Made by a program: the position numbers and the translations under genes. DNA of 64,000 nucleotides from a virus (Duplodnaviria > Heunggongvirae > Uroviricota > Caudoviricetes): positions 5,543 through 69,542 of the IMG/VR virus record IMGVR_UViG_3300034105_001678; one strand, given 5' to 3'. Under the pieces are notes generated by a model. It saw only the letters and a list, made by a program, of their open reading frames with translations. It did no database searches and was not told where the DNA came from. Positions 16,100 through 59,542 of this stretch are shown piece after piece (the stretch's first letter is position 1; each line of letters opens with the position of its first letter).

Positions 16100-16351
16100 T
16101 TATTTGAATAACACCCTTATCATATCCTTTGCACGATTTAAACAGTCAGTCCAATTGTTCCCCTGGGATATGACATTCCCCGTCTCTAGGTCAAAGATAT
16201 ACCATATGTCACCTATCTTACACTTACCCCCTTTAATCTCAGGTACATTCGGTGCAGGTCTAGTCGTGTTAATGGTTATCCTTTTGGAATCTACCTTTAT
16301 CCAATTCCCATTTAAAAAAAGATTCCTTTTCTTGTTAGATTGTCCAGTCAT
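16100..16351 (-). CDS. hypothetical protein
   Basis: ORF. Confidence 0.35.
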   Translation of the reverse strand: MTGQSNKKRNLFLNGNWIKVDSKRITINTTRPAPNVPEIKGGKCKIGDIWYIFDLETGNVISQGNNWTDCLNRAKDMIRVLFK

Positions 16352-17178
16352 ATATTAGTTTCATAATGTTTCTTAGATGGATATAGTTCTAAAAATTTTT
16401 GTGTTGTGATTAATTCGTTTCTTTTTGATTTGTGATGAAAAACTCTATAATGATTCACCACACCATCAACCTCAATAAAAAAGTTTAATGGAGTTTCATT
16501 TTCAACTAAACACCCATAACAATGAATTTCGTTATTAGAATTGTGTTGAATTCTTATGTGGTGGTGCCAATCTTCAACCTCTAATTTGTCTTTTTTGTTA
16601 TGTGGATTCAACATTTTATTATTATATATCATATACCCATCAACAGTAAACCATCTTTTTGGTTTTGTCTTTGTTGGTTTTTGATTCAAACTTATTGGGT
16701 TAAATTCTTTCAAATATCTACTCAAAATGTACATATCAAATATACCACCATTTCTACTTCTAAATTTTTCCAAATAATCATAATCATTTTCTGAGAATAA
16801 TTCGTGTTCACTTAATCCATATTTCGTTATCATATGTTTTTTTAATGGTGAATCAATAAACTGATAAAATTTCCCATCCCATTCTATACCTTGCTGTCTT
16901 GTTTTTAAGTCCCACTTAAAGTGTTTCATATTATTACTAAGGGTATAATCATAATCCACAGGTATAAGATAAGGTGAAAATCTGTATCCCCAATGGTACC
17001 CATCTCCTTTCCAAGTCCTATATGCAATGTACATCGAATTAGGGGTGTTTAAATATTTAATCGGTAGAAAATCAATAAATTCTGCCAATTTTTTTTCGTC
17101 AGCAAGTAGAGTTTTAGGAATTAATAATGCACCTAACCCCGCAAACAATGATGTTTTTAAAAATGACCTCCTATCCAT
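16348..17178 (-). CDS. exported protein with twin-arginine (Tat) signal peptide
   Basis: MDRRSFLKTSLFAGLGALLIP is a textbook Tat motif (RRxFLK) plus an h-region. The mature part is His/Tyr/Trp-rich and of unknown function. Confidence 0.5.
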   Translation of the reverse strand: MDRRSFLKTSLFAGLGALLIPKTLLADEKKLAEFIDFLPIKYLNTPNSMYIAYRTWKGDGYHWGYRFSPYLIPVDYDYTLSNNMKHFKWDLKTRQQGIEWDGKFYQFIDSPLKKHMITKYGLSEHELFSENDYDYLEKFRSRNGGIFDMYILSRYLKEFNPISLNQKPTKTKPKRWFTVDGYMIYNNKMLNPHNKKDKLEVEDWHHHIRIQHNSNNEIHCYGCLVENETPLNFFIEVDGVVNHYRVFHHKSKRNELITTQKFLELYPSKKHYETNI

Positions 17179-17631: not shown

Positions 17632-17670
17632 TTTTTAAAAATAAATAAACCCATTGAAAACCAATGGGTT
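17632..17670 (-). terminator. rho-independent terminator
   Basis: On the minus strand, hairpin aacccattgg-tttt-caatgggtt then a T-rich run. Confidence 0.65.
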
Positions 17671-17719: not shown

Positions 17720-18088
17720 TTAAATTGTTTCATTGTCTCTTATTACTCCTCTGAATATTAGTGGTCTATCCTTTGGCATATCATCAAAATTATCTTCGTT
17801 GTAATGTATCATATCACTTATGTTTGTGTTGTCCACAAATTCATATACAAATATAATCTTATCTCTACTCATTTCCATAAAATGATTGTATGAATTAATA
17901 TATCTATTTGTAACTGTCACCGTCATTGTCTTTAATTCCTCGGTATAAAAATTTCCATCCCATCTATTTTCCATATAGAATATTACACCCACAGGTCTAT
18001 ACATCCATTGTAATTGGCCAAGGTAATCACTCCTCAAATACCATTTTCTCTTTATATTCTTTTGGAAGAACTTGAATGGTCTAATCAT
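17720..18088 (-). CDS. MIKPFKFF-family protein 1 (MIRPFKFFQKN...)
   Basis: Shared N-terminal decapeptide. The body is unrelated to other family members. Confidence 0.55.
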   Translation of the reverse strand: MIRPFKFFQKNIKRKWYLRSDYLGQLQWMYRPVGVIFYMENRWDGNFYTEELKTMTVTVTNRYINSYNHFMEMSRDKIIFVYEFVDNTNISDMIHYNEDNFDDMPKDRPLIFRGVIRDNETI

Positions 18089-18524
18089 TTCTAAATGTTA
18101 AAGTTGTGTCAGCATTGGTATGGAATACTTCTCCTACCATATCTTCATTCCATTTACATTGTTCATAAATAATATGATTAATCTCCGCTTCAACATCAAT
18201 ACTCATCCAAGCACCCGCTGCAAGTTCTTGTATATATCTTCTTATTGTTACACTATTTGTATGAACCGCAACCTCATCAATCTTCCTTCTAATATCATAA
18301 TCACTATAAGAATTATATTTGTCTCTATATAATTTAGTCATAATGATAATCAACATATTTTTAACTCTATCATTATCCATTAAATTATTATCCTGAATAT
18401 ATTTGTATGTGATGTCTAATACACCAATCAATAATGGAACATTTGTTGCATCATCTAACAAACCGGTTAGTTGCCAATTTATTTTTGTTTCGTTTGATCT
18501 AAAAAATTTGAAATCCTTTATCAT
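18081..18524 (-). CDS. MIKPFKFF-family protein 2 (MIKDFKFFRSN...)
   Basis: Shared N-terminal motif. Overlaps its neighbour by 8 nt. Confidence 0.55.
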   Translation of the reverse strand: MIKDFKFFRSNETKINWQLTGLLDDATNVPLLIGVLDITYKYIQDNNLMDNDRVKNMLIIIMTKLYRDKYNSYSDYDIRRKIDEVAVHTNSVTIRRYIQELAAGAWMSIDVEAEINHIIYEQCKWNEDMVGEVFHTNADTTLTFRND

Positions 18525-18751
18525 TATACATTATTATTTCGTTCATACATCGTAACTCCCTCTCTCCATAATTCATACTCATATTCTTCCACAAGTGGAT
18601 TGTATGGTGACTCTAACGAACGACTATTACGGTAACAATCAAATGCATCATAATATCCTTTTGTGTATATGTTTCTATCCTCAGGACTTAAACCACTATA
18701 TCTATTGGGTATAGGAACTTGTTTCTTTGCGAGGAACTTAAATGTTTTCAT
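18524..18751 (-). CDS. MIKPFKFF-family protein 3 (MKTFKFLAKK...)
   Basis: Shared N-terminal motif. Confidence 0.5.
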   Translation of the reverse strand: MKTFKFLAKKQVPIPNRYSGLSPEDRNIYTKGYYDAFDCYRNSRSLESPYNPLVEEYEYELWREGVTMYERNNNV

Positions 18752-18930
18752 TATTTTTTTATTTTAAAGAAATTAACTATTCTATCTGTGAAAGGTAGTT
18801 TATTCTTCTTTAACATCTCTTGATATTCCACCACTTCAATCGCCTCACTCATTAAGATTGGGGTTCCTCTTCTTACCTTATCAGACAATTCTTCAAGACG
18901 TTTGTCTGTGAGTGTTTTTCTAAATTTCAT
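18751..18930 (-). CDS. hypothetical small protein (MKFRKTLTD...)
   Basis: Track ORF 18751..19014 trimmed to the ATG at 18930. This avoids an 83-nt overlap with the upstream gene. Confidence 0.35.
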   Translation of the reverse strand: MKFRKTLTDKRLEELSDKVRRGTPILMSEAIEVVEYQEMLKKNKLPFTDRIVNFFKIKK

Positions 18931-18931
18931 A

Positions 18932-19162
18932 TTATTTAATTTTGTTTTCAATATTTTTATTATGGAGTTCAACAAAATACTCTGCAATATGTTTATGTAA
19001 CTCCCCAGACCCAACTATCCAATATTCATCTTGACCCCCGTCATCAAAAAGTATGGGTTCAATAGGTTTAATCGTTCTACACCAACATTTTTCTCCTTGA
19101 TTACAAGTTCCTATTTGCCATTTTACGGTTAAAGATTTTTCTTCCGCTTCTTCAAATTTCAT
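18932..19162 (-). CDS. hypothetical Cys-containing small protein
   Basis: Contains C..C..CWC. Could bind metal. Confidence 0.4.
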   Translation of the reverse strand: MKFEEAEEKSLTVKWQIGTCNQGEKCWCRTIKPIEPILFDDGGQDEYWIVGSGELHKHIAEYFVELHNKNIENKIK

Positions 19163-19172
19163 ATTATTTGTT

Positions 19173-19688
19173 TTATATTATATCAGGAAAATTATACATA
19201 TAGTGGTCTGGATAAATTGTTTGTCCTTCCACTGTGTTCCCTTCTTCAATACTTCTAAACAACATAACTTTATATGGCTGCGGCAAAATAGAATCGTATC
19301 TTTCTTCGGACACATCAAAGAATACAAATTCATCTGTGTTATAGAATTCAGGATATGTTTCATCTATTGGTGGGTTAGGATTTACATTACGATAATTCAT
19401 TTCTACTCTATCACTCCACCTCAGAAACCCTCTATTCCACAACTCACACCATTCAGCAGCCATACGATCATCGACAATACCTTCATATGGATTGATGGTG
19501 ATATTATTACGTCCAGCTTCCCACCCCTCAATGTATGTTTCAATACGTATTAAGGTTCCACCTCTCAAATCCTGTGGTAACATATTCCAATGACGATTCG
19601 ATATTCCATATGGTGGATCTATTCGTACTGGTAATGTATACTCATCACTATATGTGTATCCGTTAAGTAGTTTAAATGGTTTTATCAT
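19173..19688 (-). CDS. MIKPFKFF-family protein 4 (MIKPFKLLNGY...)
   Basis: Shared N-terminal motif. Confidence 0.55.
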   Translation of the reverse strand: MIKPFKLLNGYTYSDEYTLPVRIDPPYGISNRHWNMLPQDLRGGTLIRIETYIEGWEAGRNNITINPYEGIVDDRMAAEWCELWNRGFLRWSDRVEMNYRNVNPNPPIDETYPEFYNTDEFVFFDVSEERYDSILPQPYKVMLFRSIEEGNTVEGQTIYPDHYMYNFPDII

Positions 19689-20023
19689 ACGTATCTTATT
19701 GTTGATGTTCCATCTAAATATTCATTTAAAAAATCTTCCATAAATCCAATTACCTGTTCATTACATATATAATTTCTATATCTATATTTTAATTCATCTA
19801 TCATTGCTCTAACGGATAATTCATCCATATCACCATCGTAAATTAATTCTAATTGTGTATTTTGAGCTCCTACATAAAAACCAAGATGTTGTGTAGGACC
19901 AGAAAAAAAATATGTTGGTGGTTCGTTTGAAGTTATTACCTCAACAGGTACACCTCCAACCAATAGGTCGTAGTGATATAATCTTTTTGGTCTCCCCTCA
20001 AAAAATTTAAATTGGTTTACCAT
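19685..20023 (-). CDS. MIKPFKFF-family protein 5 (MVNQFKFFEGRP...)
   Basis: Shared N-terminal motif. Confidence 0.5.
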   Translation of the reverse strand: MVNQFKFFEGRPKRLYHYDLLVGGVPVEVITSNEPPTYFFSGPTQHLGFYVGAQNTQLELIYDGDMDELSVRAMIDELKYRYRNYICNEQVIGFMEDFLNEYLDGTSTIRYV

Positions 20024-20270
20024 CTTCTTCCCACTCTTTAATGTTTCTTAATATTGTTTCCGTTAGTTCTTTTGTTTTATCATCCAATAGTTTCATCATC
20101 TCAATATCTTTTGGGTTTGTTTCATCCCACGCAGCTTCTTCTCTCGCACCTGATTCGTGAATAACATTATTAATCATAAACCAACAGGACATTTTAATTC
20201 TTGTTTCCAACGATGTTTCTTTTAACAATTCACTTATAGTGTTTGATAAAATCTTTCTTGCCTTTGCCAT
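20007..20270 (-). CDS. hypothetical acidic protein
   Basis: ORF. Confidence 0.4.
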   Translation of the reverse strand: MAKARKILSNTISELLKETSLETRIKMSCWFMINNVIHESGAREEAAWDETNPKDIEMMKLLDDKTKELTETILRNIKEWEEDGKPI

Positions 20271-20271
20271 A

Positions 20272-20709
20272 TTATCCTCTTCTTTGTAAATTAATTAATG
20301 GGACACTTACTCTATAATTTTCAGTATTCCCGTCTCTTGTAATTAAATAAACTATGTGAAACATTCCACCAATATTAATTCCACTTACAATCTTTAATAT
20401 TATTACCTCACCATTTCTTTCTTCTATAGAAGTTTCATATCCTCTCCAATTTATATTTCGTCTCATTTTAGTTCTTACACGACTGATAACAAATCCATCA
20501 TAAAAAGTTTGTGGTATTGGAACTTGTACATAACCTGCTGGTATATATTCTGGACTTCTCATTATTTGTTGAACTCTATCTGATAACTCACTCAATCTCA
20601 CTCCACCATACAAGTCGGGATTAATTGTTCTATCATAATATCCACCTCGTGGTGTTGATACAACTATGGCACTATTTGTCCCCCGTAAAAATTTAAATGG
20701 TTTTATCAT
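20272..20709 (-). CDS. MIKPFKFF-family protein 6 (MIKPFKFLRGTN...)
   Basis: Shared N-terminal motif. Confidence 0.55.
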   Translation of the reverse strand: MIKPFKFLRGTNSAIVVSTPRGGYYDRTINPDLYGGVRLSELSDRVQQIMRSPEYIPAGYVQVPIPQTFYDGFVISRVRTKMRRNINWRGYETSIEERNGEVIILKIVSGINIGGMFHIVYLITRDGNTENYRVSVPLINLQRRG

Positions 20710-20909
20710 CTTCTTTTAAATTTAACTTGATGTAATAACATCATTGGTACGAATACCCAAGCAACTAAAGCCGCGGGAACGGTCTTAGCAATCACTTCGA
20801 GTAAAGTGAATTCATCTTTGTCTTCATATCTTCTCTCCGATGGATGTTTGATCATCCAATATACACCATATATTGTTGTTAGTATCCAATAGATTAATAA
20901 TATTACCAT
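20706..20909 (-). CDS. small membrane protein (2 TM)
   Basis: Hydrophobic segments with a basic C-terminus. Confidence 0.4.
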   Translation of the reverse strand: MVILLIYWILTTIYGVYWMIKHPSERRYEDKDEFTLLEVIAKTVPAALVAWVFVPMMLLHQVKFKRR

Positions 20910-20921
20910 ACGTTTAAAGTT

Positions 20922-21218
20922 TTATTCTACCATATAATATCTCGACCGTTTATATTCTTTTCTATTCTGATATGAGTCCTTCCAGTTCTGAATAATTTGT
21001 TCCGCTTGATATTTTTGTTGAAATGGATATGATCCCGATTCCCATACTTTGAAAGGTAATGGAAAATAGTTAGTATTATACCACACTTTTTGTTGTGGTA
21101 AATAATACGTTGTACCTTCGTAAGTCCACGTTTGGATACGATACTTTGGTTTTCCTTCTAGTGTTGTTACTCCCAACAACATTAGTACTATAATAAGTCT
21201 TTTCATTATTAGATACAA
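20922..21218 (-). CDS. small secreted protein (signal peptide)
   Basis: N-terminal MKRLIIVLMLLGVTTLEG. Confidence 0.4.
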   Translation of the reverse strand: MYLIMKRLIIVLMLLGVTTLEGKPKYRIQTWTYEGTTYYLPQQKVWYNTNYFPLPFKVWESGSYPFQQKYQAEQIIQNWKDSYQNRKEYKRSRYYMVE

Positions 21219-21250
21219 TATAAATAATATTTCTTATAATATAAAATTAT

Positions 21251-21820
21251 TTACCATATACTTAAAATTTTAGATAGAATGAGAATTACAACAAATGTTA
21301 TGATGGTTGCAATAACAGTTATAGGTAGCGCTTGGTCACTATACAATGATAACTTTTGAAAGAACATCTTAACCCTCGTCCACCACTTCGGATTAACAGT
21401 TGTTACTCTTGTTGCTTGGAACAATCTAATTTGATTTCTTAGTCTTTCACTTTCGGCCAACATATCTCTGTTCAAATTATATTGTTCTTGTGTGATGGTA
21501 CCGTTAAGTATTTGTGTACGATTGTTATCTTCAGTTACTATATCTCGTCTAATGAGCGCTCTTTCTAATGTAAACCTTTCGATTTCATCGGTAGCATTGT
21601 GAAATCTATCATATAATTCACGGTCGGTATGGTATAATCTTCTTCTACCCATATAACCTTCAGGTGTATCGGCGTTGATATATGTTCTTGGATGATGGTA
21701 ATTGATTACCTCTTGAACAAATCTTTGACCGTCATTTAATGATGCGGTTGCTCTAGTCTCTCCTTCATAGAGATCTAATGTTCCCTTAACTTCCTTCTGG
21801 AAAAATTTGAATGGTTTCAT
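21251..21820 (-). CDS. MIKPFKFF-family protein 7 (MKPFKFFQKEVKG...) with C-terminal TM
   Basis: Shared N-terminal motif. C-terminal hydrophobic helix. Confidence 0.55.
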   Translation of the reverse strand: MKPFKFFQKEVKGTLDLYEGETRATASLNDGQRFVQEVINYHHPRTYINADTPEGYMGRRRLYHTDRELYDRFHNATDEIERFTLERALIRRDIVTEDNNRTQILNGTITQEQYNLNRDMLAESERLRNQIRLFQATRVTTVNPKWWTRVKMFFQKLSLYSDQALPITVIATIITFVVILILSKILSIW

Positions 21821-21829
21821 ATTATTTTT

Positions 21830-21964
21830 TTATTCGTCGTCACCTCCGTTTTCATAACATCTCTCACACATACCATTAATTGACATTCCACTACCAATTG
21901 AACCGCAGTCTCTTCCACATATTTTGCAGAAACCCGCCCTAAAAAAATTGATTACCTTTTTCAT
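21830..21964 (-). CDS. 44-aa zinc-ribbon protein (not in the ORF track)
   Basis: MKKVINFFRAGFCKICGRDCGS...CERCYENGGDDE has two CxxC pairs. Confidence 0.4.
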   Translation of the reverse strand: MKKVINFFRAGFCKICGRDCGSIGSGMSINGMCERCYENGGDDE

Positions 21965-22102
21965 ATTATTTTTTATATTTTCTTAATTTACATTTTTCAT
22001 CCCATATCAAATATCTTATTTGTAAACTCTTAAAGAAACCTTTGGTTTCAGTTAATAAAGTTTGATAATAAATGATTTTCTTTTGGATTAGTCTTTTTGC
22101 CA

Positions 22103-22324
22103 TTATCTTCGGTTTAGTTGTCTACCCGCAGCAGACGGTGTGGTTAAGTAATAATCATAGTGCATCACACAATGTCTTTGATTTTCTTGAATAACATAAT
22201 TGAAATGATTATACTTCATTTCTGTTACGGTACAATAATAACCACGGAAAATAAATGTTGAACCAACTTGTAGTTGACATCTATTTTTATATGGGTTTCG
22301 TTGAAAAAATTTAAATGGTTGCAT
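22103..22324 (-). CDS. MIKPFKFF-family protein 8 (MQPFKFFQRNPYK...)
   Basis: Shared N-terminal motif. Confidence 0.5.
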   Translation of the reverse strand: MQPFKFFQRNPYKNRCQLQVGSTFIFRGYYCTVTEMKYNHFNYVIQENQRHCVMHYDYYLTTPSAAGRQLNRR

Positions 22325-22469
22325 TATGGTGTGATATAAAAAAATAATGAATCGAACTTTGAATGTGCGAGAAAGTAACTACCATCTTTACATTGATACA
22401 GGTTAACTGGTCTACCGTTTACTCTATCAGTGAAACGATACCCAATATAGGATGCGAATAATCTTTTAA

Positions 22470-22805
22470 TCATAATACTTCAGTTAATATTCTCCAGTCT
22501 TTTAATATGTTACCATCGAAGGTAACCTCAACAGGGATACCTTTTAATTTATCAACACTGTTTACTTTTGCCTCTTTCAATAATTTGGATACAAATCTCA
22601 TTGTATCATCAAATCCTTTGGTTCTATCTTCTTCAGTCCATTCGGTATATTCACTACGTTTAATCATTTCTGGGTCCCAAGCACCTTTGAAATCACCAAC
22701 GCCCCAACTACCATTACCAAGTGTAACCGATAGACCAATACAAGCGTCTTGATAACCTCCGTGTCCGAATCTAACTGATTCGATTTTTCCTAATTTCTTT
22801 TCCAT
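22470..22805 (-). CDS. hypothetical protein
   Basis: ORF. Confidence 0.45.
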   Translation of the reverse strand: MEKKLGKIESVRFGHGGYQDACIGLSVTLGNGSWGVGDFKGAWDPEMIKRSEYTEWTEEDRTKGFDDTMRFVSKLLKEAKVNSVDKLKGIPVEVTFDGNILKDWRILTEVL

Positions 22806-25940: not shown

Positions 25941-26594
25941 TTAATCGTTTAGTGAACCCCATTGATGAACGAATGCACTTGCAATTCCATCGAAGGTTCT
26001 GTTACGAATTCTTTCTCTTTCTTTTGGATCTTTGGATGCCGCTTCAGCATACCACTTAGACATTCTCTTACCACTTTTGTATGTGATAAATTCACCCTTA
26101 CCGACAATCTTAGTTGGTGTTAGTAATGGTAAACCTTTTAACCATAAACAAGTACTCTTACTTGCCTCGTGTCCGAATTGCCAAGGATGAACAACTTGAT
26201 TGGGTTTTCTCCATATAGTACTCATCACACCAATAGGATTCTCAATCGCGATTCTTGGTATCGGTGCGTTAGATAATGCCATAAAGAATTCAATACCTTC
26301 CTTTCTATGTTGTTGTCTATCTGGAAACCTTGGATGTGGTCTACGTTCTGATGTTGGTAGATGTCCATCTTCAGGATGGTAAAACCATTTGTTACCTGTT
26401 ACAGTTAAGTAAGTACAAGGTGGATGAGCAATCATTAAGTCCCAACCCTGGTCTAAAATATCTAAGACATTTCCTTGGTAATGTTTACCTGGAGTTTCTG
26501 ATGGTTCGAGATCACAAGACGTTGCGTCGTGTCCCATTTTTGTGAACCAATCTCTAACGGTTCCACTAAATTCACAAGCTATTAATACTTTCAT
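25941..26594 (-). CDS. putative DNA C5-cytosine methyltransferase-like protein (short phage type)
   Basis: CEFSGTVR (motif I-like), AHPPCTYLT (PC motif IV) and IENP (ENV-like). Low-complexity middle region. Confidence 0.45.
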   Translation of the reverse strand: MKVLIACEFSGTVRDWFTKMGHDATSCDLEPSETPGKHYQGNVLDILDQGWDLMIAHPPCTYLTVTGNKWFYHPEDGHLPTSERRPHPRFPDRQQHRKEGIEFFMALSNAPIPRIAIENPIGVMSTIWRKPNQVVHPWQFGHEASKSTCLWLKGLPLLTPTKIVGKGEFITYKSGKRMSKWYAEAASKDPKERERIRNRTFDGIASAFVHQWGSLND

Positions 26595-32952: not shown

Positions 32953-33609
32953 TTATCCAACAATTCCTTTCATATCATCTGTGTGATGATCTAACGGTCC
33001 TAACTCTGAACCGATTACAACTTTTTTCATCGGATTAATAATCTCACGATGTAAATCATAAGGTCTAAATTCTGGATGACCATCCATACCTACATCCATT
33101 CTTCTACCATTGGTAATCTTTTGTGCGTGTGGTAAGTGACAATGTCCGTGTAGCATTATTCTACCTTTACGTAAACCATTCCAAGATGATATTGGATAGT
33201 GCATACACTCCAACGTTTCACCCATATAGTTTACTTGTAGGAACCATTGAACACTATTGAATAAACTTTGACAGTTCTCTCTGTTCCTATCAATGTGATG
33301 ATCGTGGTTACCTAAGATTAAATGAATCTCTTGACATATGATTCTATCTCTTAACAATTGAATGTTTTCAAATCCACCGAATGACCAATCCCCAAAATGA
33401 ATCAACACATCTTCTTGACCAACAACCTCATTGATGTTGTTAACAATGGTATCATTCATCTTATCTAACGTTGGGAAATCCCTTGTTTGATTTTCCGGAA
33501 TATCTCCATTAGCTAATCTCCAATTAGTTGTTCCACGACATATGTTTCCGTGACTGAAATGGGTGTCTCCCGTTACCCAAACTTTTCTACTATCTTCTAT
33601 CTTTATCAT
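32953..33609 (-). CDS. calcineurin-like metallophosphoesterase
   Basis: GDTHFSHGN, GDWSFGG, GNHDHH and HGHCH motifs. Confidence 0.65.
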   Translation of the reverse strand: MIKIEDSRKVWVTGDTHFSHGNICRGTTNWRLANGDIPENQTRDFPTLDKMNDTIVNNINEVVGQEDVLIHFGDWSFGGFENIQLLRDRIICQEIHLILGNHDHHIDRNRENCQSLFNSVQWFLQVNYMGETLECMHYPISSWNGLRKGRIMLHGHCHLPHAQKITNGRRMDVGMDGHPEFRPYDLHREIINPMKKVVIGSELGPLDHHTDDMKGIVG

Positions 33610-34022
33610 CCTCTAAAAAATTTAAAATCTTTTTTCTTATCCGGTCTTCTATTTGGTGGTTCTATTCTTTCTATTGCAGACCTAATTGCCGTTTCTCTTT
33701 CTGATTGTGCTTGAGTAATTCGTGATATTGGTGGTGGAGGTGGAATGGTTCTACCAAAACTTGTCATTCGTTGTCTGTTAATTTCTGACATTGTTCTAAA
33801 CCATCCTCTATGTCTCTCGTTACTTTCATTTTCTTTCTTTCGTTTTTCTTTTATGATTTTTTCCTCATCATCTCCAATTAATAACGCCAATATTGGACCC
33901 AATATTATTGCACCTATTATTGTATCTAAACCTAATGTCCAACGTTTACTGTGATAGACCATCACATATGTTGCGGATATCATCCAAAAAAATACTAAAA
34001 CAAATATTAACTCGTTACTCAT
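33606..34022 (-). CDS. membrane protein (N-terminal TMs, PPPPP linker); C-terminus ends DFKFFRG
   Basis: Hydropathy. The C-terminal heptapeptide mimics the MIKPFKFF-family motif. Confidence 0.4.
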   Translation of the reverse strand: MSNELIFVLVFFWMISATYVMVYHSKRWTLGLDTIIGAIILGPILALLIGDDEEKIIKEKRKKENESNERHRGWFRTMSEINRQRMTSFGRTIPPPPPISRITQAQSERETAIRSAIERIEPPNRRPDKKKDFKFFRG

Positions 34023-40309: not shown

Positions 40310-40885
40310 TTAAATTTTATTTATTTTAAATAACTCTTCGGTTAAATCAATATATGGTTGTGTTTCGGGATTATAATAGCCAACCATTTTGTCTATTTTT
40401 TCCTTATTGTCGTATGTTGTAGTTTTATTATGTTGTTCAACTCCCCAAATTGGTTCTGGTAATTCTCTAACATTAAACATAACCACTCGTTCTGGTGTTG
40501 CGCAAACATAAAAAACATCTTTGTCAGGTGATATAATCATATCGTCCCATTTTTTCTTTTCAACTAAGAAAGTATCATAATCTTTCTTTCTTCCTTTAGT
40601 TTCAATTCCACATTTTTCTAAAATACTACGCAAATCGATAGGAGAATATTTGTTATGTATATTTAAATCTATCAAATCAGGATACAATTTTTTCAATTCA
40701 AAATAAATACTTGTTTCATCCTGACAAATGTAAGTTAGATATCTTTCTCTTCTTTTACTTAAAAGTAGTGGTATACAATTAATAATTGTATCTAAACAAT
40801 TTTTATGTTCTTGTTCTTTTTCTAATTGTTCCGCTATCCGTTTTTCAATTTCTTCTACTGACAACTCTTCAATATCTCTCGACAT
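40310..40885 (-). CDS. hypothetical protein
   Basis: ORF. Confidence 0.45.
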   Translation of the reverse strand: MSRDIEELSVEEIEKRIAEQLEKEQEHKNCLDTIINCIPLLLSKRRERYLTYICQDETSIYFELKKLYPDLIDLNIHNKYSPIDLRSILEKCGIETKGRKKDYDTFLVEKKKWDDMIISPDKDVFYVCATPERVVMFNVRELPEPIWGVEQHNKTTTYDNKEKIDKMVGYYNPETQPYIDLTEELFKINKI

Positions 40886-41469
40886 AAATCTTCTGGTATT
40901 TTACTTCTTTCATAAGCGTTAGATCTACCTTGTGTTCCTGTTTTAGAACCTCTAGGTGCTGCAACGTGACAAGGTGAACCATTCTTACACATTGGTCTTG
41001 GAACCCATACATCACTATTAGTCCATATGTCGGTTGGTTTCATTCTTTCATCACCATACTGACAATATGTAACAGTGTTTCGTTTGAACTTATCCATAAA
41101 TGGCATCTTACGAAGAACTCCTCTTGGGTTTTCAATGAACCAATATGTTGGATTGAAATGTTCAATCACTTCGATAGTTTTCTTAACTAATTCAATACCA
41201 AGTCGTGCGGTATCTGTCTTAGGAATGTACGCACCCTTACCTCCAGTCCAATGGTGACCTAAAGCGGCAACACTGAATCCTGTACAAGGTGGTGATGCCC
41301 AAATTACATCAGGTTGAAATGGAACTTTGGTTACATCAAAGTCTAAGATACTAACGGCATAATGTATTCCGTCAAATGGTGTTAGGTCGGATGAAAATAC
41401 TTCCATACCTAACTCTTCGGCAATCTTTCCAACGGAACGACTACCCGCAAATAATTCTAATACTTTCAT
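40855..41469 (-). CDS. DNA (cytosine-5)-methyltransferase
   Basis: Motif I LELFAGSRS, motif IV ASPPCTGFS, motif VI ENPRG. Compact 204 aa. Confidence 0.8.
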   Translation of the reverse strand: MKVLELFAGSRSVGKIAEELGMEVFSSDLTPFDGIHYAVSILDFDVTKVPFQPDVIWASPPCTGFSVAALGHHWTGGKGAYIPKTDTARLGIELVKKTIEVIEHFNPTYWFIENPRGVLRKMPFMDKFKRNTVTYCQYGDERMKPTDIWTNSDVWVPRPMCKNGSPCHVAAPRGSKTGTQGRSNAYERSKIPEDLCREILKSCQ

Positions 41470-44265: not shown

Positions 44266-45234
44266 TTAATATACTATTTTTTCTTGAGATTTCAAAATAT
44301 CATCAACAATTTGTATCCTTTGACCAATCCATCTCATTACATTTACTGTCATTGAGTTACCAATAATACCTTTAACATTTGAATATGATGGTTTTTTACC
44401 GTCAATTTCAAAGTCAAGATAATCATCAGGGAACCCCTGAAGTCTAAGTAATTCTTTCTCGGTAAATTCTCGGATACCTCCCTCATCAACCCAATAGTTT
44501 GATGTTGAATCCTTACCAAACCCATCGGTTAATGTTTGAGAATATGATTTAGTTATCGTACCTGCGATTCTAATTTGTCCGAGAAGACTTTTGGTACGGT
44601 CATCCCTCTCTTTAAGAGTCTCTTTTTTAAATTTCTTAAAACATCCTTCGTCAAATAATATTGCCGCAGGGACTCTCCAGTCGGTTCCACGATATCCAAC
44701 AATGTAGACTCTTTTGCGTCGTTGGGGTACTCCAAAATATTGGGAGTCGAAAACCCTATAAGCGATTGACCGTTTGGTACCTTGAACAATACCTCCCCCT
44801 CTGTTGATGTTGTCCGGTCTAAAATCGACACCTGTGAAAGAGGAGATGATGTCACACAACCCTTCTTTGTGTTCTTTATCAAAAACACCGTCGACGTTTT
44901 CCCATACGTTGTACTTGGGAGATTTTGACTCAAGAATTCCTCCATATTTAATGGCGAGTTGAGCACGTAAGTCATCCATTCCTTTTCTGAGTCCTGAATT
45001 TGACCAAGCTTGGCACGGTGTGCCTCCGACGAACACGTCGAAATCTGTTTTTTTGAATTTTTCATCGTCTAGTAAGTTTAACATATTTGTATAAAAAGGA
45101 ACATCAGGGTAATGATGTTTAAGGACTTTCTGTGGGAAACTTGCAAAGTCACATAGACCCGCACATTCCCAACCAAGTGGCTCCCAAGCGACAGTCGCCG
45201 CCTCCATACCACTACATACTGAAAAATACTTCAT
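44266..45234 (-). CDS. DNA (cytosine-5)-methyltransferase
   Basis: Motif I FSVCSGMEAA, motif IV GGTPCQAWSNSG, motif VI VWENVDGV. C-terminal target recognition domain. Confidence 0.8.
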   Translation of the reverse strand: MKYFSVCSGMEAATVAWEPLGWECAGLCDFASFPQKVLKHHYPDVPFYTNMLNLLDDEKFKKTDFDVFVGGTPCQAWSNSGLRKGMDDLRAQLAIKYGGILESKSPKYNVWENVDGVFDKEHKEGLCDIISSFTGVDFRPDNINRGGGIVQGTKRSIAYRVFDSQYFGVPQRRKRVYIVGYRGTDWRVPAAILFDEGCFKKFKKETLKERDDRTKSLLGQIRIAGTITKSYSQTLTDGFGKDSTSNYWVDEGGIREFTEKELLRLQGFPDDYLDFEIDGKKPSYSNVKGIIGNSMTVNVMRWIGQRIQIVDDILKSQEKIVY

Positions 45235-49737: not shown

Positions 49738-50859
49738 TTAATTACTTAATGGTGCTTTTATTGACGGGTGATATTGGTAATTTTCTAATATTACATCTTT
49801 TTCTCCGAATGAAAATATACCATCCATAATGTGTACAGTTGGTAAATTAAATGGTTCTCTGTTTATTTGTTCTTTAGCTTGTTCAATATGGTTCTTATAT
49901 AAATGAACATCACCTAAATTACCTATTAATTCATCTGGTACCATACTCATTTCATCCGCAATCATCATTAATAATAAACCATATGACGCAATGTTAAATG
50001 GTAAACCTAAAAATGTATCAACAGATCTTTGATTCCACATTAAGGATATTGCTCGTTTAGGTATATTGTGTGATTGTAACTCTTCACTCAATCCCCCACC
50101 AAATGGAACTATATCATCAACCATTGATTTAAACCTTTCCTCACCAACTTTCTTCTTTAATAAGTCCCACATCTCTTCCCCAGTTAACTTTCTAGTGTAG
50201 ACTTGAAAACCATAATGACAAGGCGGTAAAACCATTTGGTCTAACTCACCCACGTTCCAAGCACTTACCATCAATCTTCTACTATCTGGATTTGTTTTAA
50301 GTTCATCAATTAGATTTTGAATTTGGTCTAAATAAATTGGGTCACCGTTATCGGATATGTCTTGTAATCCACCCCATTTTCTCCATTGTTTACCATAAAT
50401 TGGTCCGAGTTCTCCCCATTCCTTAGCAAACTCATCATCAATTTTGATAAGATTAATAAATTCTTCTTGAGTTAATGGTGTTAACATATCCGAATTACTG
50501 AACAGTATTTCAATGTGTGGTTGGATACCCATAATATCTCCACATTTATATCCATCAATAATCTCATTAATCTTTTTAGAATAGTTTTTATAAGCATCAC
50601 CATTCCAAATGCTACATCCATTCATCACTAGATACTTGATGTTAGTACTACCACTTAAAAACCAAATCAACTCGGTTACCATAGTTTTCCAAGCCATTTT
50701 CTTAGTTGTTAATAATGGAAACCCCTGAGCCATTCTATGACGTATTTGTCTACCAAAAACTGAAATGGTTCCAGTTCCAGTTCTATCCGTTTTAACAACT
50801 CCATTATCCAAAATATCTTGTAGTAAATCTTGATACTTCTTATCAATCGTATTCATCAT
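49738..50859 (-). CDS. thyA: thymidylate synthase (ThyA) with two insertions
   Basis: DRTGTGT, GFPLLTTKK, SAWNVGELDQMVLPPCHYGFQVY, LGLPFNIASY. About 100 aa longer than E. coli ThyA. Start trimmed to MMNTIDKK. Confidence 0.85.
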   Translation of the reverse strand: MMNTIDKKYQDLLQDILDNGVVKTDRTGTGTISVFGRQIRHRMAQGFPLLTTKKMAWKTMVTELIWFLSGSTNIKYLVMNGCSIWNGDAYKNYSKKINEIIDGYKCGDIMGIQPHIEILFSNSDMLTPLTQEEFINLIKIDDEFAKEWGELGPIYGKQWRKWGGLQDISDNGDPIYLDQIQNLIDELKTNPDSRRLMVSAWNVGELDQMVLPPCHYGFQVYTRKLTGEEMWDLLKKKVGEERFKSMVDDIVPFGGGLSEELQSHNIPKRAISLMWNQRSVDTFLGLPFNIASYGLLLMMIADEMSMVPDELIGNLGDVHLYKNHIEQAKEQINREPFNLPTVHIMDGIFSFGEKDVILENYQYHPSIKAPLSN

Positions 50860-51065
50860 ATTAATTTTTTTCTTCTTCAATTTCATATCCTTCTTGGATT
50901 TGTACTCCCATCATATAGGTTAACCACCTGATTGTTAACCCCCAACAAGGTGACGTTATACCCGTTTCAAGGAACTCCGTTTTGTTATAAAAAAAAACTA
51001 CCGTTGGTATTATGAACCAATGGTGCCTTTTATTATAAATAAAAAAGTCTTTGTAGTAAATTTTT

Positions 51066-52518: not shown

Positions 52519-53874
52519 ATGAAGAAAAAAATATTACTTTTATCTGATGATTTAAGAATGACATCAGGTATTGCTACTATGTCCAAAGAAATCGTATTAG
52601 GTACCGTCCACAAATACGATTGGGTTCAGTTGGGTGCATCGATTAGTCACCCTGAAATTGGGAAGATTGTTGATGTAAATGACGACATAAGAAAACGCAC
52701 CGGAGTTGAAGATGCGAATTTAAAGATTATACCATACAATGGTTATGGGGATATCAATATGATTCGTAGATTGTTAGACGAAGAAAAACCAGATGCCATT
52801 CTTCATTTTACGGACCCACACTATTGGCAATGGTTATACGATAACGAACACGAGATAAGACAGCGTGTACCAATTTTATATTGGCACATTTGGGATGACT
52901 TACCAGATCCACAATACAATAGAGACTTCTATGAAAGTTGTGATTGGGTTGGTGGTATTTCAAAACAAACATACGGTATTATTCATCGTGTTAGTAAAAG
53001 AACCGATAAGGTTACATTTAAACCTTTGGAAGATTGGCAGATAAGTTACGTTCCTCACGGTATTAATCCAGATTTATTTAAACCGTTAGATACTATCAGT
53101 GAAGAAGTAACTAAATTTATTCACGGAGAAAAGAAATATGACTTTGTTCTATTTTACAACAGTAGAAACATTAGAAGGAAACAACCAAGTGACGTAATTT
53201 ATTCATTTAAATTATTCTGTGATAGATTACCAAAAGAAAAGGCTGAAAAATGTTTATTGCTAATGCACACATCTCCGGTTGATGAGAATGGTACAGACTT
53301 ACCTGCAGTTATTAATGACCTTTGTCCTTATGATGTTAGATTCACGGGTATTAAATTAGAACAAGATAAGCTAAATGAATTCTATAACATTGTTGATTGT
53401 ACAATTAACATTGCAAACAATGAAGGATTTGGTTTAACGACGGCAGAATCTTTAATGTCGGGAACACCAATCATTGTAAATGTTACTGGTGGGTTACAGG
53501 ATCAATGTGGATTTGATTTTAGTGCCGATGATTATATTAGTGTCGGTACTTTACATAGTAAGGAAGAAAGAAGTCAAACAGCTCACGGTGAATGGGTTAT
53601 TCCTGTTTGGCCATCGGCAATTAACTTAAATGGTTCAGTACCAACACCATACATTTTTGATGATAGGGTTAATGATATTGAAGTTGCTGATGCTATTATG
53701 AAAATGTATAAGTTTAGTAAAAAGAAGAGAAAAGAAAAAGGATTAAAAGGTAGAGAGTTTATGATTAACAATCTATCAAATAAAATAATGTGTGATAAAC
53801 TGATTGAAGGTATTGATACCACAATGGAAAAATTCACACCAAGAAAAAGATTCGACACATATAAAGTAATATGA
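52519..53874 (+). CDS. glycosyltransferase, GT-B fold (GT1/GT4-like)
   Basis: C-terminal EGFGLTTAESLMSGTPIIVNVTGGLQDQ is a GT4-type donor-binding motif. Confidence 0.65.
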   Translation: MKKKILLLSDDLRMTSGIATMSKEIVLGTVHKYDWVQLGASISHPEIGKIVDVNDDIRKRTGVEDANLKIIPYNGYGDINMIRRLLDEEKPDAILHFTDPHYWQWLYDNEHEIRQRVPILYWHIWDDLPDPQYNRDFYESCDWVGGISKQTYGIIHRVSKRTDKVTFKPLEDWQISYVPHGINPDLFKPLDTISEEVTKFIHGEKKYDFVLFYNSRNIRRKQPSDVIYSFKLFCDRLPKEKAEKCLLLMHTSPVDENGTDLPAVINDLCPYDVRFTGIKLEQDKLNEFYNIVDCTINIANNEGFGLTTAESLMSGTPIIVNVTGGLQDQCGFDFSADDYISVGTLHSKEERSQTAHGEWVIPVWPSAINLNGSVPTPYIFDDRVNDIEVADAIMKMYKFSKKKRKEKGLKGREFMINNLSNKIMCDKLIEGIDTTMEKFTPRKRFDTYKVI

Positions 53875-55127
53875 TTAAACCATTTTTATTATTTAGAGGA
53901 CCAGTAAAAACAAGAAGCGGATATGGTGCACATTCAAGAGACTTACTTGAATCACTTTATAAGATGGACTTGTTTAATATTAAAATTGATAGTTGTTCTT
54001 GGGGAAGTACTCCATTAACCGCATTAGAAGAAGGGAATGAATTCCATAATTGGATTAATGAAAACATCATTACCAACTTACCGGATCAACCAGAGATTTA
54101 TGTACAAGTAACCGTACCAAATGAATTTCAAAGAGTTGGTAAATTTAATATAGGTGTGACCGCAGGTATTGAAACAACTGTGGCACCTAAAAATTGGGTG
54201 GATGGTTGTAATAGGATGGATCACATCATAACCACTTCAACATTTTCTAGAGACGTTTTATTACAAACAGTTTATAATGAAACAGAAAATAATACTGGAA
54301 AATTAATTAAACAATTTAGAATTGAAAAACCCGTTTCAGTATTGTTTGAAGGTGTTGATACATCAATATATAATAACAAATATAAAGGTATCGATGTCGA
54401 TATTACGGAAGATTTTGCGTATCTTTTTGTTGGTCATTGGTTGAAAGGTGATACTGGTCAAGATCGTAAAGATGTTGGAATGTTGATTAGATGTTTCATT
54501 GAAGCATTTAAGGATGAAGAAGTAAAACCTGCGTTAGTTCTTAAAACGTCGTCAGCAACTTTCTCAGTTAGACAAAGAGAAGATTTTAGAAAGAAAATTG
54601 AGGATATTGTTAAGTTAAGTAAAACCGATACTCCTCCATCAATTTATCTTTTGTTTGGTGAATTAACCAATGAGGAAATGAATGAGTTATATAATCATCC
54701 TAAAATAAAAGCAATGGTTTCAATAACAAAAGGTGAAGGATTTGGTAGACCGTTATTAGAATTTACAATGACGGGTAAACCTGTGATAGCATCTAATTGG
54801 TCTGGACATAAAGACTTCTTACCTATGGAGAAAGCTATAATGGTTGGTGGTTCATTAACTGAAGTACACGAAAGTGTGATAGATGATTTTATCATTAAGG
54901 GTTCCAAATGGTTCACAGCCAATTATAACGAGTTTACAGAAGTGATGAAAATTGTTATTAAAGATTATGATAAGTTTTTGGAGAAGTCTGAATTGCTTAG
55001 AGAGTTTAACTCTGAAAACTTTACGTTGGATAATATGAAAAATAAGTTTGAATCTATTTTAAAACAAAATACAATTCAACCAAAAGAACATAAATTGGTT
55101 TTACCAAAACTCACAAAAGTTAACTAA
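53871..55127 (+). CDS. glycosyltransferase, GT-B fold (GT1/GT4-like)
   Basis: KGEGFGRPLLEFTMTGKPVIASNWSGHKDFL. The N-terminus MIKPFLLFRGP resembles the MIKPFKFF family motif. Confidence 0.6.
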   Translation: MIKPFLLFRGPVKTRSGYGAHSRDLLESLYKMDLFNIKIDSCSWGSTPLTALEEGNEFHNWINENIITNLPDQPEIYVQVTVPNEFQRVGKFNIGVTAGIETTVAPKNWVDGCNRMDHIITTSTFSRDVLLQTVYNETENNTGKLIKQFRIEKPVSVLFEGVDTSIYNNKYKGIDVDITEDFAYLFVGHWLKGDTGQDRKDVGMLIRCFIEAFKDEEVKPALVLKTSSATFSVRQREDFRKKIEDIVKLSKTDTPPSIYLLFGELTNEEMNELYNHPKIKAMVSITKGEGFGRPLLEFTMTGKPVIASNWSGHKDFLPMEKAIMVGGSLTEVHESVIDDFIIKGSKWFTANYNEFTEVMKIVIKDYDKFLEKSELLREFNSENFTLDNMKNKFESILKQNTIQPKEHKLVLPKLTKVN

Positions 55128-55378
55128 TGTCATTTAAATTTCTCACAGGTAACCAAGATATGTTTACACATTTGGAACCCACCCAACTATTAACATTAAG
55201 ACAACCAACAATGATTAACAATGTTGAATTTTGTTTTCAGTTTGGTGATAATGAACCCGTAGTATTTGCAACAGGACCTAATGAATGTCAAATTCGATTA
55301 AGTCCACAAACAGATGCTAATATTATGTTCACAGATAATCATAGACAGTTTAAATTATTTGCAAGAGAAAGACAATGA
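55127..55378 (+). CDS. hypothetical protein
   Basis: ORF. Confidence 0.35.
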   Translation: MSFKFLTGNQDMFTHLEPTQLLTLRQPTMINNVEFCFQFGDNEPVVFATGPNECQIRLSPQTDANIMFTDNHRQFKLFARERQ

Positions 55379-55584
55379 GAAAGTTTACCTTCTTTGTTGG
55401 TATTAGTAAACCAACACTAACCGCAACTTGGTCACCTGAATTCAATGATAATTTATTTACTAACCACGGTATTGATGCTGAGGCGGAACTAACAAGAATA
55501 ATGTCAGCAGAAATTGCAAGAACAATAGATGAAGATATAATAAGAACATTAACAAGAGAAATAAACGGAGGATTAAGAGCCTAA
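55375..55584 (+). CDS. hypothetical protein
   Basis: ORF. Confidence 0.35.
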   Translation: MRKFTFFVGISKPTLTATWSPEFNDNLFTNHGIDAEAELTRIMSAEIARTIDEDIIRTLTREINGGLRA

Positions 55585-55585
55585 T

Positions 55586-56431
55586 ATGAAAATTTTAGTA
55601 ACAGGAGGAGCAGGATTTATAGGAACTAATCTAATTAAGAGATTATTATTTGAAGGGCATAATGTAGAATCTATTGACAACTACGATAGTGGGTTAGTGT
55701 CCAATCACGTAGATGGGTGTAACTATCATACGGGAGATATAGAATCTATTGGTTTGATGGATAAAGACTTTGATATGATATATCATTTAGCGGGACTAAG
55801 TAGAATCCAACCATCGTTTAAAAATCCAACAGAAACTTTCAGAGTTAATACTATAGGTACCGAGAGTGTTTGTTCATTTGCAAAGAAAATAAATGCTAAG
55901 GTTGTATATGCGGGTTCGTCGTCAAGATGGCACGACCCATTTCAATCACCATACGCTTGTTACAAACATATGGGTGAAGAGATTTGTAAAATGTACAGAA
56001 AGGTTTATGATATAGACATTGAAATTGTTAGATTTTATAATGTTTACGGACCTAACGAAGTTGTTGACGGTGATTGGGCCGCAGTTATTGGTATATGGAG
56101 AAGACAAGTTATTAATAAGGAACCAATTACTATTGTTGGTGACGGTAATCAAAGACGAGATTTCACACACGTTATTGATATAGTTGATGGTTTATATAGG
56201 GTTGGTACGAGTAACGAAAAACACGAAGACGCTTGGGAGTTAGGTACTGGAACCAATTATTCAATACTTGAAGTCTATGAAATGTTTAAGGAAAAATTTG
56301 GGTGTGATAAGTTACACATTGAGAATCAGAAGGGTAACTATCGTATAACTTTGCGTGAAAATAACGATGCAATCGACCGTTTAGGTTGGTCACCAGAAAA
56401 TAGATTAAAAAATTATGTAGATAGTTTATGA
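55586..56431 (+). CDS. NAD-dependent sugar epimerase/dehydratase (SDR family)
   Basis: Rossmann ILVTGGAGFIGTNL. Catalytic YACYKHMGEE (YxxxK). Confidence 0.75.
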   Translation: MKILVTGGAGFIGTNLIKRLLFEGHNVESIDNYDSGLVSNHVDGCNYHTGDIESIGLMDKDFDMIYHLAGLSRIQPSFKNPTETFRVNTIGTESVCSFAKKINAKVVYAGSSSRWHDPFQSPYACYKHMGEEICKMYRKVYDIDIEIVRFYNVYGPNEVVDGDWAAVIGIWRRQVINKEPITIVGDGNQRRDFTHVIDIVDGLYRVGTSNEKHEDAWELGTGTNYSILEVYEMFKEKFGCDKLHIENQKGNYRITLRENNDAIDRLGWSPENRLKNYVDSL

Positions 56432-57051
56432 AAATAAGTTTTGCTATAACAGTATCCAAAGAGATAAACGAAATTAAACATTTAGTTCCATTCTTATTAG
56501 AACATAAACGACCTCAAGATGAGATAGTTGTTTTGTTTGATGAAAAAAATGGAGACAAGGAAGTGTTAGATTTTTTATTGCCTTTTAATATCAAACCTAA
56601 CGTACAAACCTGGAGAGGTTTTGATTTTGATTATAACTTTGCCGATTGGAAGAATAAATTAAATTCTTATTGTGTTGGGGATTATATATTTCAATTAGAT
56701 GCTGATGAGATGGTAAGTGAGTATATGATAAAGAACGTTACTGAAATCATTTCTATGAATAAGGACGTTGAGTTATTTTTTCTACCAAGAATAAACATAG
56801 TAAGTGGAATAACTCAGGATCATATTAATAGATGGGGATGGATAGTTGATGACTTAGGTAGGATTAACTTTCCAGACTTTCAAGGTAGAATATATAAGAA
56901 AGGTTTGGAATGGCAGGGAAAAGTTCACGAAAGAATTGTAGGAACGAAGTCCTATTCATTACTACCATCAGATGAAGAGTCGTATTGTATTAAACATTAC
57001 AAAGACATATCTAAACAAGAACAACAAAATAACTTATACAGTAAAATATGA
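56428..57051 (+). CDS. putative glycosyltransferase (GT-A, DxD QLDADE)
   Basis: DxD motif and GT2-like N-terminus. Confidence 0.45.
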   Translation: MKISFAITVSKEINEIKHLVPFLLEHKRPQDEIVVLFDEKNGDKEVLDFLLPFNIKPNVQTWRGFDFDYNFADWKNKLNSYCVGDYIFQLDADEMVSEYMIKNVTEIISMNKDVELFFLPRINIVSGITQDHINRWGWIVDDLGRINFPDFQGRIYKKGLEWQGKVHERIVGTKSYSLLPSDEESYCIKHYKDISKQEQQNNLYSKI

Positions 57052-59538: not shown

Positions 59539-59542
59539 GATT

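Follow-up and report, generated by a model that had tools for sequence, protein, structure and literature searches.

The internal proteins of T-even phages are diverse defence proteins that have only a capsid-targeting sequence (CTS) in common (PMC3012670). In T4, the first 10 residues of the internal protein IPIII suffice for incorporation into the head, residues 4 and 7 of the CTS are important for targeting, 8 and 10 for processing, and the Alt protein is processed at both termini (PMC9026906). Reports on the jumbo phages phiKZ and SPN3US describe many paralogous or diverse head proteins for ejection, with terminal propeptides for targeting and processing (PMC5694885, PMC7411985). Here we analysed 64,000 nucleotides (the window) from the Caudoviricetes record IMGVR_UViG_3300034105_001678 of IMG/VR, where an array of small genes at 17720-22324 encoded proteins that shared one terminal peptide, called the tag below. 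It was likely that the tag, [M-(I/V)-(K/R)-x]-F-K-F-(F/L)-(Q/R/K)-(G/K), was a terminal docking peptide that addressed the small proteins of a shuffled repertoire to a single receptor. By analogy with T4, this receptor might well be the prohead core and the tag a capsid-targeting (packaging) label, a more tentative proposal in which we only infer the receptor, the packaging and the injection.

A peptide shared by an array of small genes

Sixteen small open reading frames (ORFs) were closely packed on the minus strand at 17720-22324. Eight of them were tagged, starting with M-x(1-3)-F-K-[FL]-[FL] at 18088, 18524, 18751, 19688, 20023, 20709, 21820 and 22324. The tagged array genes encoded 73-189 aa and were tight or overlapping, with ATGA and TAATG junctions, and independent gene calls on identical metagenome contigs matched the array ORFs. 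The initial annotation had described eight genes with near-identical N-termini at this locus, and all eight were found as minus-strand ORFs with the following positions and starts; a candidate ninth gene lay elsewhere in the window.

17720..18088, minus strand: tagged gene, 122 aa, MIRPFKFFQKN; last gene of the array, BLAST cluster 4, with orthologues in 5 other loci
18081..18524, minus strand: tagged gene, 147 aa, MIKDFKFFRSN; body predicted to be all-helical
18524..18751, minus strand: tagged gene, 75 aa, MKTFKFLAKK; by eye, an RMF-like motif GY..A...PY...W.EG in the body
19173..19688, minus strand: tagged gene, 171 aa, MIKPFKLLNGY; tag plus YTYSDEYTLP extension, RMF-like domain and C-terminal beta domain
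19685..20023, minus strand: tagged gene, 112 aa, MVNQFKFFEGRPKRLYHY; EGRxKRLYHY extension common to another body family
20272..20709, minus strand: tagged gene, 145 aa, MIKPFKFLRGTN
21251..21820, minus strand: tagged gene, 189 aa, MKPFKFFQKEVKG; tail-anchored, with a C-terminal transmembrane (TM) helix
22103..22324, minus strand: tagged gene, 73 aa, MQPFKFFQRNPYK; first gene of the array
55127..55378, plus strand: candidate ninth tagged gene, 83 aa, MSFKFLTGNQ; one-base overlap with the stop of a GT4 gene

A six-frame scan of the 64 kb found a further N-terminal F-K-[FL]-[FL] only at 55127-55378 (plus strand). Ten in-frame Met codons followed by 60 aa or more before the stop carried the motif in the window, compared with a mean of 0.05 and a maximum of 1 in 60 Markov-shuffled windows.

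IMG/VR was searched with one degenerate 23-nt pattern for MIKPFKF(F), which retrieved 16 stretches from 14 contigs (5-335 kb, 29-39% GC). Several tagged ORFs were present in 15 of the 16 stretches, with up to 18 in 8.5 kb (locus L005). The same pattern gave 42 matches in 185,579 prokaryote genomes, where there was at most one tag-like ORF per locus, several matches were not ORF-initial, and no tag array was found. The tag arrays were shown to be restricted to viral contigs. Two of the window families corresponded to 358 and 315 clusters in a collection of 5.8 billion proteins; their named members were all called 'hypothetical protein' except for one 'transposase', and the contigs reached 636 kb. 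The related viral contigs had about 31% GC, and none of them came from a cultured virus. Among cultured and GenBank phages (50,697 records) there was no match by blastn with the region, by tblastn with the 171-aa protein or by tblastn with 27 tagged families, and the literature searched held nothing relevant on the motif or the tagged families in huge phages. The nearest GenBank relative of the window ligase belonged to LR756511, an uncultured phage of 595 kb, which was considered as a member of the same clade and rejected, having 43% GC and no tags in 41 kb.

The initial annotation had implied that a syntenic locus in relatives would carry the same tag on different cargo, and this was the case. 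Namely, the 636-kb contig L081 (JGI 3300051786 Ga0502775_0000012, 636,496 bp) was syntenic with the window from the ligase through the array to the GP88 block, and its array locus had the same flanks with 5 tagged genes of partly different kinds instead of 8, which indicated that the locus was hyperplastic. The length of L081 was almost exactly twice that of the 316-335-kb contigs of its clade, and instead of a genome of 636 kb it may represent a dimer that was assembled head to tail.

A logo of 115-120 proteins read M-(I/V/M)-(K/R)-(P/E/D/T)-F-K-F-(F/L)-(Q/R/K/T/S)-(G/K/N), where the tag F was fixed by the search pattern and the other frequencies held within the alternatives allowed by it; within these, the frequency of the K was 96% and that of the second F 92%. 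The first F of the tag was always at residue 3-5; directly before it (position -1), 43 of 120 tags had Pro and 8 had Gln. Across 41 homologues of the 18081..18524 protein, F5, K6, F7 and F8 were invariant while residues 2-4 drifted.

The synonymous choice in 110 tagged genes was similar in tag and body (TTT 57-75% vs 75%; AAA 72% vs 69%), and the F to L and K to R replacements in the tag used several codons. Since the codon usage of the tag was that of the bodies and such replacements were present, selection acts on the tag peptide and not on a DNA signal, as had been suggested before. Nothing was conserved upstream of the ATGs of the tagged genes, and sigma-70 promoters were not enriched. A frameshift site at TTT-AAA-TTT-TTT was considered and rejected because it was in the wrong frame and the codons varied.

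The tag was also present at C-termini, as in the following gene, which carried the only C-terminal copy in the window by six-frame scan.

33606..34022, minus strand: two-TM membrane protein, 138 aa, C-terminus ..KKKDFKFFRG followed by a double stop

This DFKFFRG terminus, pointed out in the initial annotation, was real, and two other proteins in locus L004 were likewise tagged only at the C-terminus. Moreover, a mini-Gp23 family of 105-128 aa carried the peptide at both ends: its N-terminus was M-x-L-x-x-F-K-[LF]-[LI]-[RS]-G and its C-terminus [ND]-F-K-[LI]-L-[RK]-G-stop, and both were kept across 42-94% identity. Two more distant members were without either terminal tag. These proteins had a precomputed Pfam PF07068 match, aligned to residues 254-315 of T4 gp23 (BLASTP E=3e-12) and also contained a VQPM segment resembling gp23 residues 90-120, so that they consisted of two pieces of a major capsid protein of T4 type, of which gp23 ~254-315 came first and ~90-120 second, the reverse of their order in gp23. 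When the real capsid gene of the clade was sought with a mini-Gp23 protein, only small proteins were found.

L067-L069 and L071-L074 (e.g. L068:1538-1915), proteins P0296-P0325: mini-Gp23 genes, adjoining glycosyltransferase genes and no head module

By sequence, the function of the tag was shown to be independent of the terminus, and the C-terminal copies argue for a peptide that is read by a binding partner. They also bore on the possibility of a translation-level device, in which the tag would act as an optimal context of the start codon, as a ramp for early elongation or through the nascent peptide, in a host without Shine-Dalgarno (SD) signals. The starts were indeed SD-less and A-rich: an SD-like tetramer preceded 7 of the 117 window genes (6%), which was the random expectation, and the -14..-8 region of the 117 starts showed a strong excess of A and a shortage of G, a pattern typical of Bacteroidota-type translation. 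The tag codons were AU-rich as well. However, this context was common to all 117 genes while the tag was on only 9, none of which had an assigned function, and synonymous sites were no more AU-rich in the tag than in the bodies. The lack of conservation upstream of the ATG also spoke against such a device, and since the same peptide was conserved at C-termini, start-context and nascent-chain explanations were excluded. Thus, the start-context optimum offered in the initial annotation had become extremely improbable and close to refuted.

AlphaFold2 (AF2) models of two families were of low confidence (mean pLDDT 66 and 57), and pLDDT was below 50 for residues 1-22 of the 171-aa protein (19173..19688) and 1-27 of the 18081..18524 protein. 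In these two low-confidence models the tag was outside any confidently modelled fold, which agrees better with a flexible linear motif than with a core strand. A tag that is unstructured in monomer predictions and present at both ends of the mini-Gp23 proteins would also be expected if tags bound each other, so that a beta-prone amphipathic F-K-F-F zipped proteins into oligomers or a condensate, or closed a doubly tagged protein on itself. Alternating aromatic and basic residues resemble self-assembling peptides of the FKFE type and the amyloid cores KFFE and KLVFF. On the other hand, the frequent Pro at position -1 and the strictly terminal location suggested a receptor pocket over a zipper, and indiscriminate co-aggregation of more than 35 families seemed costly; we regarded self-association as improbable.

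A glycosyltransferase at 53871 had also been pointed out for a similar start. It does begin MIKPFLLFRG, but the near-invariant Lys is missing, and it was rejected as a tag carrier; by eye, this start resembles the first strand and glycine loop of a GT-B fold, and it is probably not a tag. The PHROG glycosyltransferase match of this protein began only at residue 65.

Cargo bodies of the tagged proteins

The 115 tagged ORFs of the window and the 16 IMG/VR loci formed at least 35 BLAST clusters, with bodies of 48-198 aa, and the eight tagged genes of the window belonged to eight different clusters. When profiles of 16 clusters were compared without the tag by hhalign, the best pair (clusters 5 and 11) reached 56% probability and the others remained below 10%. 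As far as these comparisons can detect, the tagged bodies have no homology, in line with the earlier remark that they are unalignable.

This result had consequences for the idea that all tagged genes are one fast-evolving paralogous family, which arose by tandem duplication from one ancestor and kept the N-terminus as its most constrained piece. The tandem arrays themselves, the pair of clusters 5 and 11 and the shared extension modules described below would suit such an origin. However, 119 of 120 profile pairs were unrelated, and the two low-confidence AF2 models differed in secondary-structure class, alpha plus beta in one family and all-alpha in the other. Modules were shuffled combinatorially instead of diverging in place, and the peptide was found also at C-termini and on a Gp23-derived protein that has untagged relatives. 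A single family was accordingly judged quite improbable, somewhat more so than self-association.

The profile of the 171-aa family matched 56 proteins among 1.84 billion representatives. The 171-aa protein had two parts, an RMF-like domain at the N-terminus and a beta domain at the C-terminus, which were found alone or fused to other modules, namely those of tagged clusters 0, 1, 7 and 9, and the tag was at the start of 49 of the 53 relevant relatives. A post-tag extension KG-Y-V-Y-S-D-E-Y-T-L-P was common to clusters 0, 1 and 5, and another, EGRxKRLYHY, to clusters 0 and 9. These sequence comparisons showed that the cargo is put together from a shuffled set of small modules and almost always capped by the tag.

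An RMF or Rmf-CrpP-like motif, GW.A.....NPY....W.RGW, was present in 19173-19688, L005:7175-7405 and L005:6620-6853. The RMF matches of tagged proteins were weak (7e-4 to 0.2; Pfam PF04957 and NCBIfam NF041886), and the RMF and Rmf_CrpP matches belonged to single members among the 115 tagged proteins and not to the 75-aa protein of 18524..18751, which had no Pfam match even at E<=1. The 171-aa family profile also reached P0295, a true multi-RMF protein (Pfam RMF 4e-17), at E=9.6e-4. The RMF-like motif hints that a part of the cargo may target the translation apparatus.

Another recurrent module, RRxAGRTIAQDLVPVQP(L/M)xxP, was observed in small non-capsid proteins, both tagged and untagged.

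L001:3124-3594, L005:5576-6046, L014:5456-5920 and others: carriers of the gp23/Gol-like module
L075-L078: untagged ORFs with the gp23/Gol-like module

This gp23/Gol-like module weakly resembled residues 96-133 of T4 gp23 (Pfam E ~1e-3, hhalign probability 14.5%), and a profile of the tagged family matched neither gp23 nor gp24 among the PDB sequences, so that the gp23 link is a lead only. The segment 96-133 overlaps what we take to be the EF-Tu-binding Gol peptide, which triggers Lit exclusion.

The T4 capsid-targeting sequence and other docking systems

In T4, the internal protein gene for IPI starts with MKTFKEFTST and those for IPII and IPIII with MKTYQEFIAE. The short form of our tag (MKTFKFF, MKPFKFF) shares M1, K2, F4, K5 and F7 with IPI, and the T4 targeting positions 4 and 7 correspond to its invariant F and its F/L, M-K-x-F4-K5-F6-[FL]7, which places aromatic residues at both; in the long form the register is shifted by one residue relative to the T4 CTS. 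A relaxed pattern, M-x(1-3)-[FY]-[KQR]-x-[FL], was found in 3 of 3 T4 internal proteins and in about 1-2% of ORFs elsewhere, a difference that is supportive but not proof because the pattern was drawn up after both sequences had been seen. As in T4, the peptide occupies the extreme terminus (~7-10 residues) of unrelated, fast-turning-over small proteins encoded outside the structural module, and its use at either terminus recalls Alt, which is processed at both ends. The best cultured matches of the window ligase were from T4-like phages and Gp23 (PF07068) fragments were present in tagged proteins; by sequence, the clade showed some T4 affinity, and these two observations are indirect signs only of a T4-type prohead core.

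If the receptor were the prohead scaffolding core, the tag would be the counterpart of the T4 CTS in this clade. After their synthesis during infection, the tagged proteins would be bound by way of the tag to the prohead core as it assembles, enclosed together with the DNA and then co-injected into the next host, where the modules (RMF-like, gp23/Gol-like and others) might act at once on host machinery or defences.

A number of observations spoke against this proposal. The match between the tag and the T4 CTS spans only 7 residues, and position 6 is Phe here and Glu in T4. No T4-type gp21 cleavage motif (L/I-x-E) was found after the tag: [LI]xE occurred within 22 residues of it in 16% of proteins compared with 27% in a control stretch, and no position after the tag was enriched for Glu. 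No gp21 protease, gp22/67/68 scaffold or gp23 capsid gene was found in the 64-kb window or in 17 related loci, and no structural gene lay within 10 kb of the arrays in the 17 loci. Instead, the arrays were in accessory or early-looking regions beside ligase, phosphoesterase and glycosyltransferase genes, and the T4 late promoter TATAAATA was not enriched (12 observed, 13.4 expected). The cargo was mostly acidic (median isoelectric point 5.3), unlike the basic T4 internal proteins. Several tagged families, including 21251-21820, had a C-terminal TM helix (tail-anchored), and membrane-anchored cargo is awkward inside a DNA-filled head. T4 internal proteins are not built of shuffled modules as this cargo is. 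The tagged genes amounted to dozens per genome, compared with 3-5 in T4, and no known CTS set is nearly as large. Finally, no tagged body matched a known anti-restriction, anti-CBASS or other anti-defence family or fold. Thus, the analogy to T4 internal proteins drawn in the initial annotation gained from the sequence resemblance and the targeting positions, and lost from the missing L/I-x-E site and the acidic or membrane-anchored cargo; its suggestion of anti-restriction or anti-CBASS cargo found no match.

The tag might also dock to another intracellular partner, a hub of the host or the phage that would recruit or tether early accessory proteins or time their degradation. Whatever speaks for a flexible recognition peptide at the terminus speaks just as much for such a partner, and the early or accessory-looking setting is in keeping with it. 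Membrane-anchored members suit a cytoplasmic partner better than a capsid interior, and the RMF-like modules and those resembling gp23 96-133 point to the translation apparatus. Host candidates would be a chaperone or trigger factor, an AAA+ protease or its adaptor, the ribosome or EF-Tu, and the sliding clamp. The aromatic and basic composition of the tag fits the binding preferences of trigger factor and DnaK, and x-Phi-x-Phi-Phi is the pattern of beta-clamp binding (QLxLF). Like the clamp motif QL[SD]LF, the tag places this pattern on flexible termini of diverse proteins, which in the case of the clamp dock onto one hub. However, the clamp consensus was not matched, since the hydrophobic spacing was the same and the residues differed: position -1 was P/E/D/T, the typical Gln was as rare as given above, Phe replaced Leu, the middle residue was basic, and the cargo had no evident link to replication. 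Moreover, a near-invariant F-K-F is seldom required in degrons and chaperone sites, competition among dozens of proteins for a single hub of the host would be strange, and the specific resemblance to the T4 CTS would be left unexplained. We considered an intracellular hub rather unlikely.

A further possibility was that the short cationic-aromatic amphipathic peptide was a signal for targeting to the membrane or envelope, or for unconventional secretion. Its composition resembles (KFF)3K carrier peptides and cell-penetrating peptides of the KFF type, and several cargo families were membrane proteins. However, the tag had no hydrophobic h-region, cleavage site, twin-arginine motif or lipobox, and its F-K-F-F was followed by polar residues, so that the secretion tag considered in the initial annotation could not be a classical secretion signal. 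At eight residues and a net charge of +2 it was too short for stable membrane binding, and the cargo was mostly soluble and acidic. A membrane signal was therefore very improbable.

Other described systems were less close. The propeptides of phiKZ and SPN3US are longer, are set by S/A/G-x-E protease sites and do not have a single shared motif of 6-8 residues; no homology to the propeptide-bearing ejection or inner-body proteins of these phages was found. The RxLR motif of oomycetes and the PEXEL motif of Plasmodium are likewise short, near-N-terminal and placed on hundreds of hypervariable, modular, clustered effector genes, but they serve eukaryotic secretion or export with unrelated motifs and machinery, and the likeness is conceptual only.

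A T4-CTS-like tag system of this kind was undescribed in the literature searched, and it was unusual in its scale, its modular cargo and its use of either terminus. Somewhat more tentatively than the prohead receptor itself, we suggest that an address label at either terminus may load a combinatorial library of dozens of small effector modules per genome into the capsids of ~320-kb uncultured phages for co-injection. With similar reserve, such a label could be seen as an 'effector translocation signal' of phages, comparable in scale to RxLR and PEXEL and descended from the T4 CTS or convergent with it. Most genes of jumbo phages are small ORFans that offer no handle for study, and here one peptide of 6-8 residues marks a functional class, which comprises 9-10 proteins in the window and, in metagenomes, hundreds of families. 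Should the tag prove to be a capsid-targeting label, then the T4 CTS principle extends far beyond the T-evens, injected-protein arsenals can be very large, and the tag of 8 residues provides a packaging handle together with a sequence rule for injected anti-defence or host-takeover factors; sequence alone would then suffice to list everything of this kind that a phage clade injects. A tag that docks to another hub would represent a new viral short linear motif system in bacteria.

CTS-like sets were not found in Acj9 or RB16 at the locus syntenic to T4 ipI. In RB16, a 261-aa 'conserved hypothetical' protein between genes 2 and 3 (L080:1383-2168) starts with MKSFKELLSE, which is CTS-like and has an L-x-E site, and T4 57B (L064:13953-14411), beside ipI, starts with MMEFKDF. 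Judging from these starts, both may be unrecognised CTS-bearing proteins.

Genomic setting and neighbouring genes

Eight untagged small ORFs (18751..22473, minus strand) were within or abutted the array, and a putative terminator was directly downstream of it.

18751-19014, minus strand: untagged ORF
18932-19162, minus strand: untagged ORF
20007-20270, minus strand: untagged ORF
20706-20909, minus strand: untagged ORF with TM segment
20922-21218, minus strand: untagged ORF with signal peptide
21830-21964, minus strand: untagged ORF, Zn-ribbon-like
21966-22103, minus strand: untagged ORF
22324-22473, minus strand: untagged ORF
17648..17670, minus strand: terminator-like hairpin with a 10-bp stem and a T-rich tail, within a gap of 129 nt directly downstream of the array

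The window had about 32% GC and was a part of a large phage. It encoded an ATP-dependent DNA ligase, a thymidylate synthase and a deoxyribonucleotidase, as well as M23 and NlpC/P60 peptidases, PcfJ, DUF932, GP88 and a long sugar-modification cluster; structural genes and tRNA genes were not found in the 64 kb. Three DNA methyltransferase genes were present, in agreement with the initial annotation.

25941-26594: DNA methyltransferase gene
40855-41469: DNA methyltransferase gene
44266-45234: DNA methyltransferase gene

Just downstream of the array, a 276-aa ORF at 16348-17178 (minus strand) had an RRSFLK leader of twin-arginine type (MDRRSFLKTSLFAGLGALLIPKTLLA) and no family match; to judge by this leader, its product was probably a phage-encoded exported protein. 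It was followed by a metallophosphoesterase and a GT2, and both families recurred beside the arrays in several related loci, with 6 members each among the 68 array-neighbour proteins scanned. One array neighbour, in one of the loci L001-L016 or L070, matched OrfB_IS605 and the Cas12f1-like TNB domain, a TnpB-type transposon nuclease, which shows mobile-element traffic in these accessory regions.

The thymidylate-synthase homologue at 49738-50886 (minus strand) had 382 aa compared with the 266 positions of the Pfam profile, and about 100 extra residues were present as insertions. The sugar cluster comprised ten genes at 52519-61743 (plus strand), namely two GT4, an epimerase/dehydratase, 3-4 GT2, a methyltransferase and a UDP-galactopyranose mutase. 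This gene content suggests modification of DNA, virion or host surface with an unusual, possibly galactofuranose-containing, glycan.

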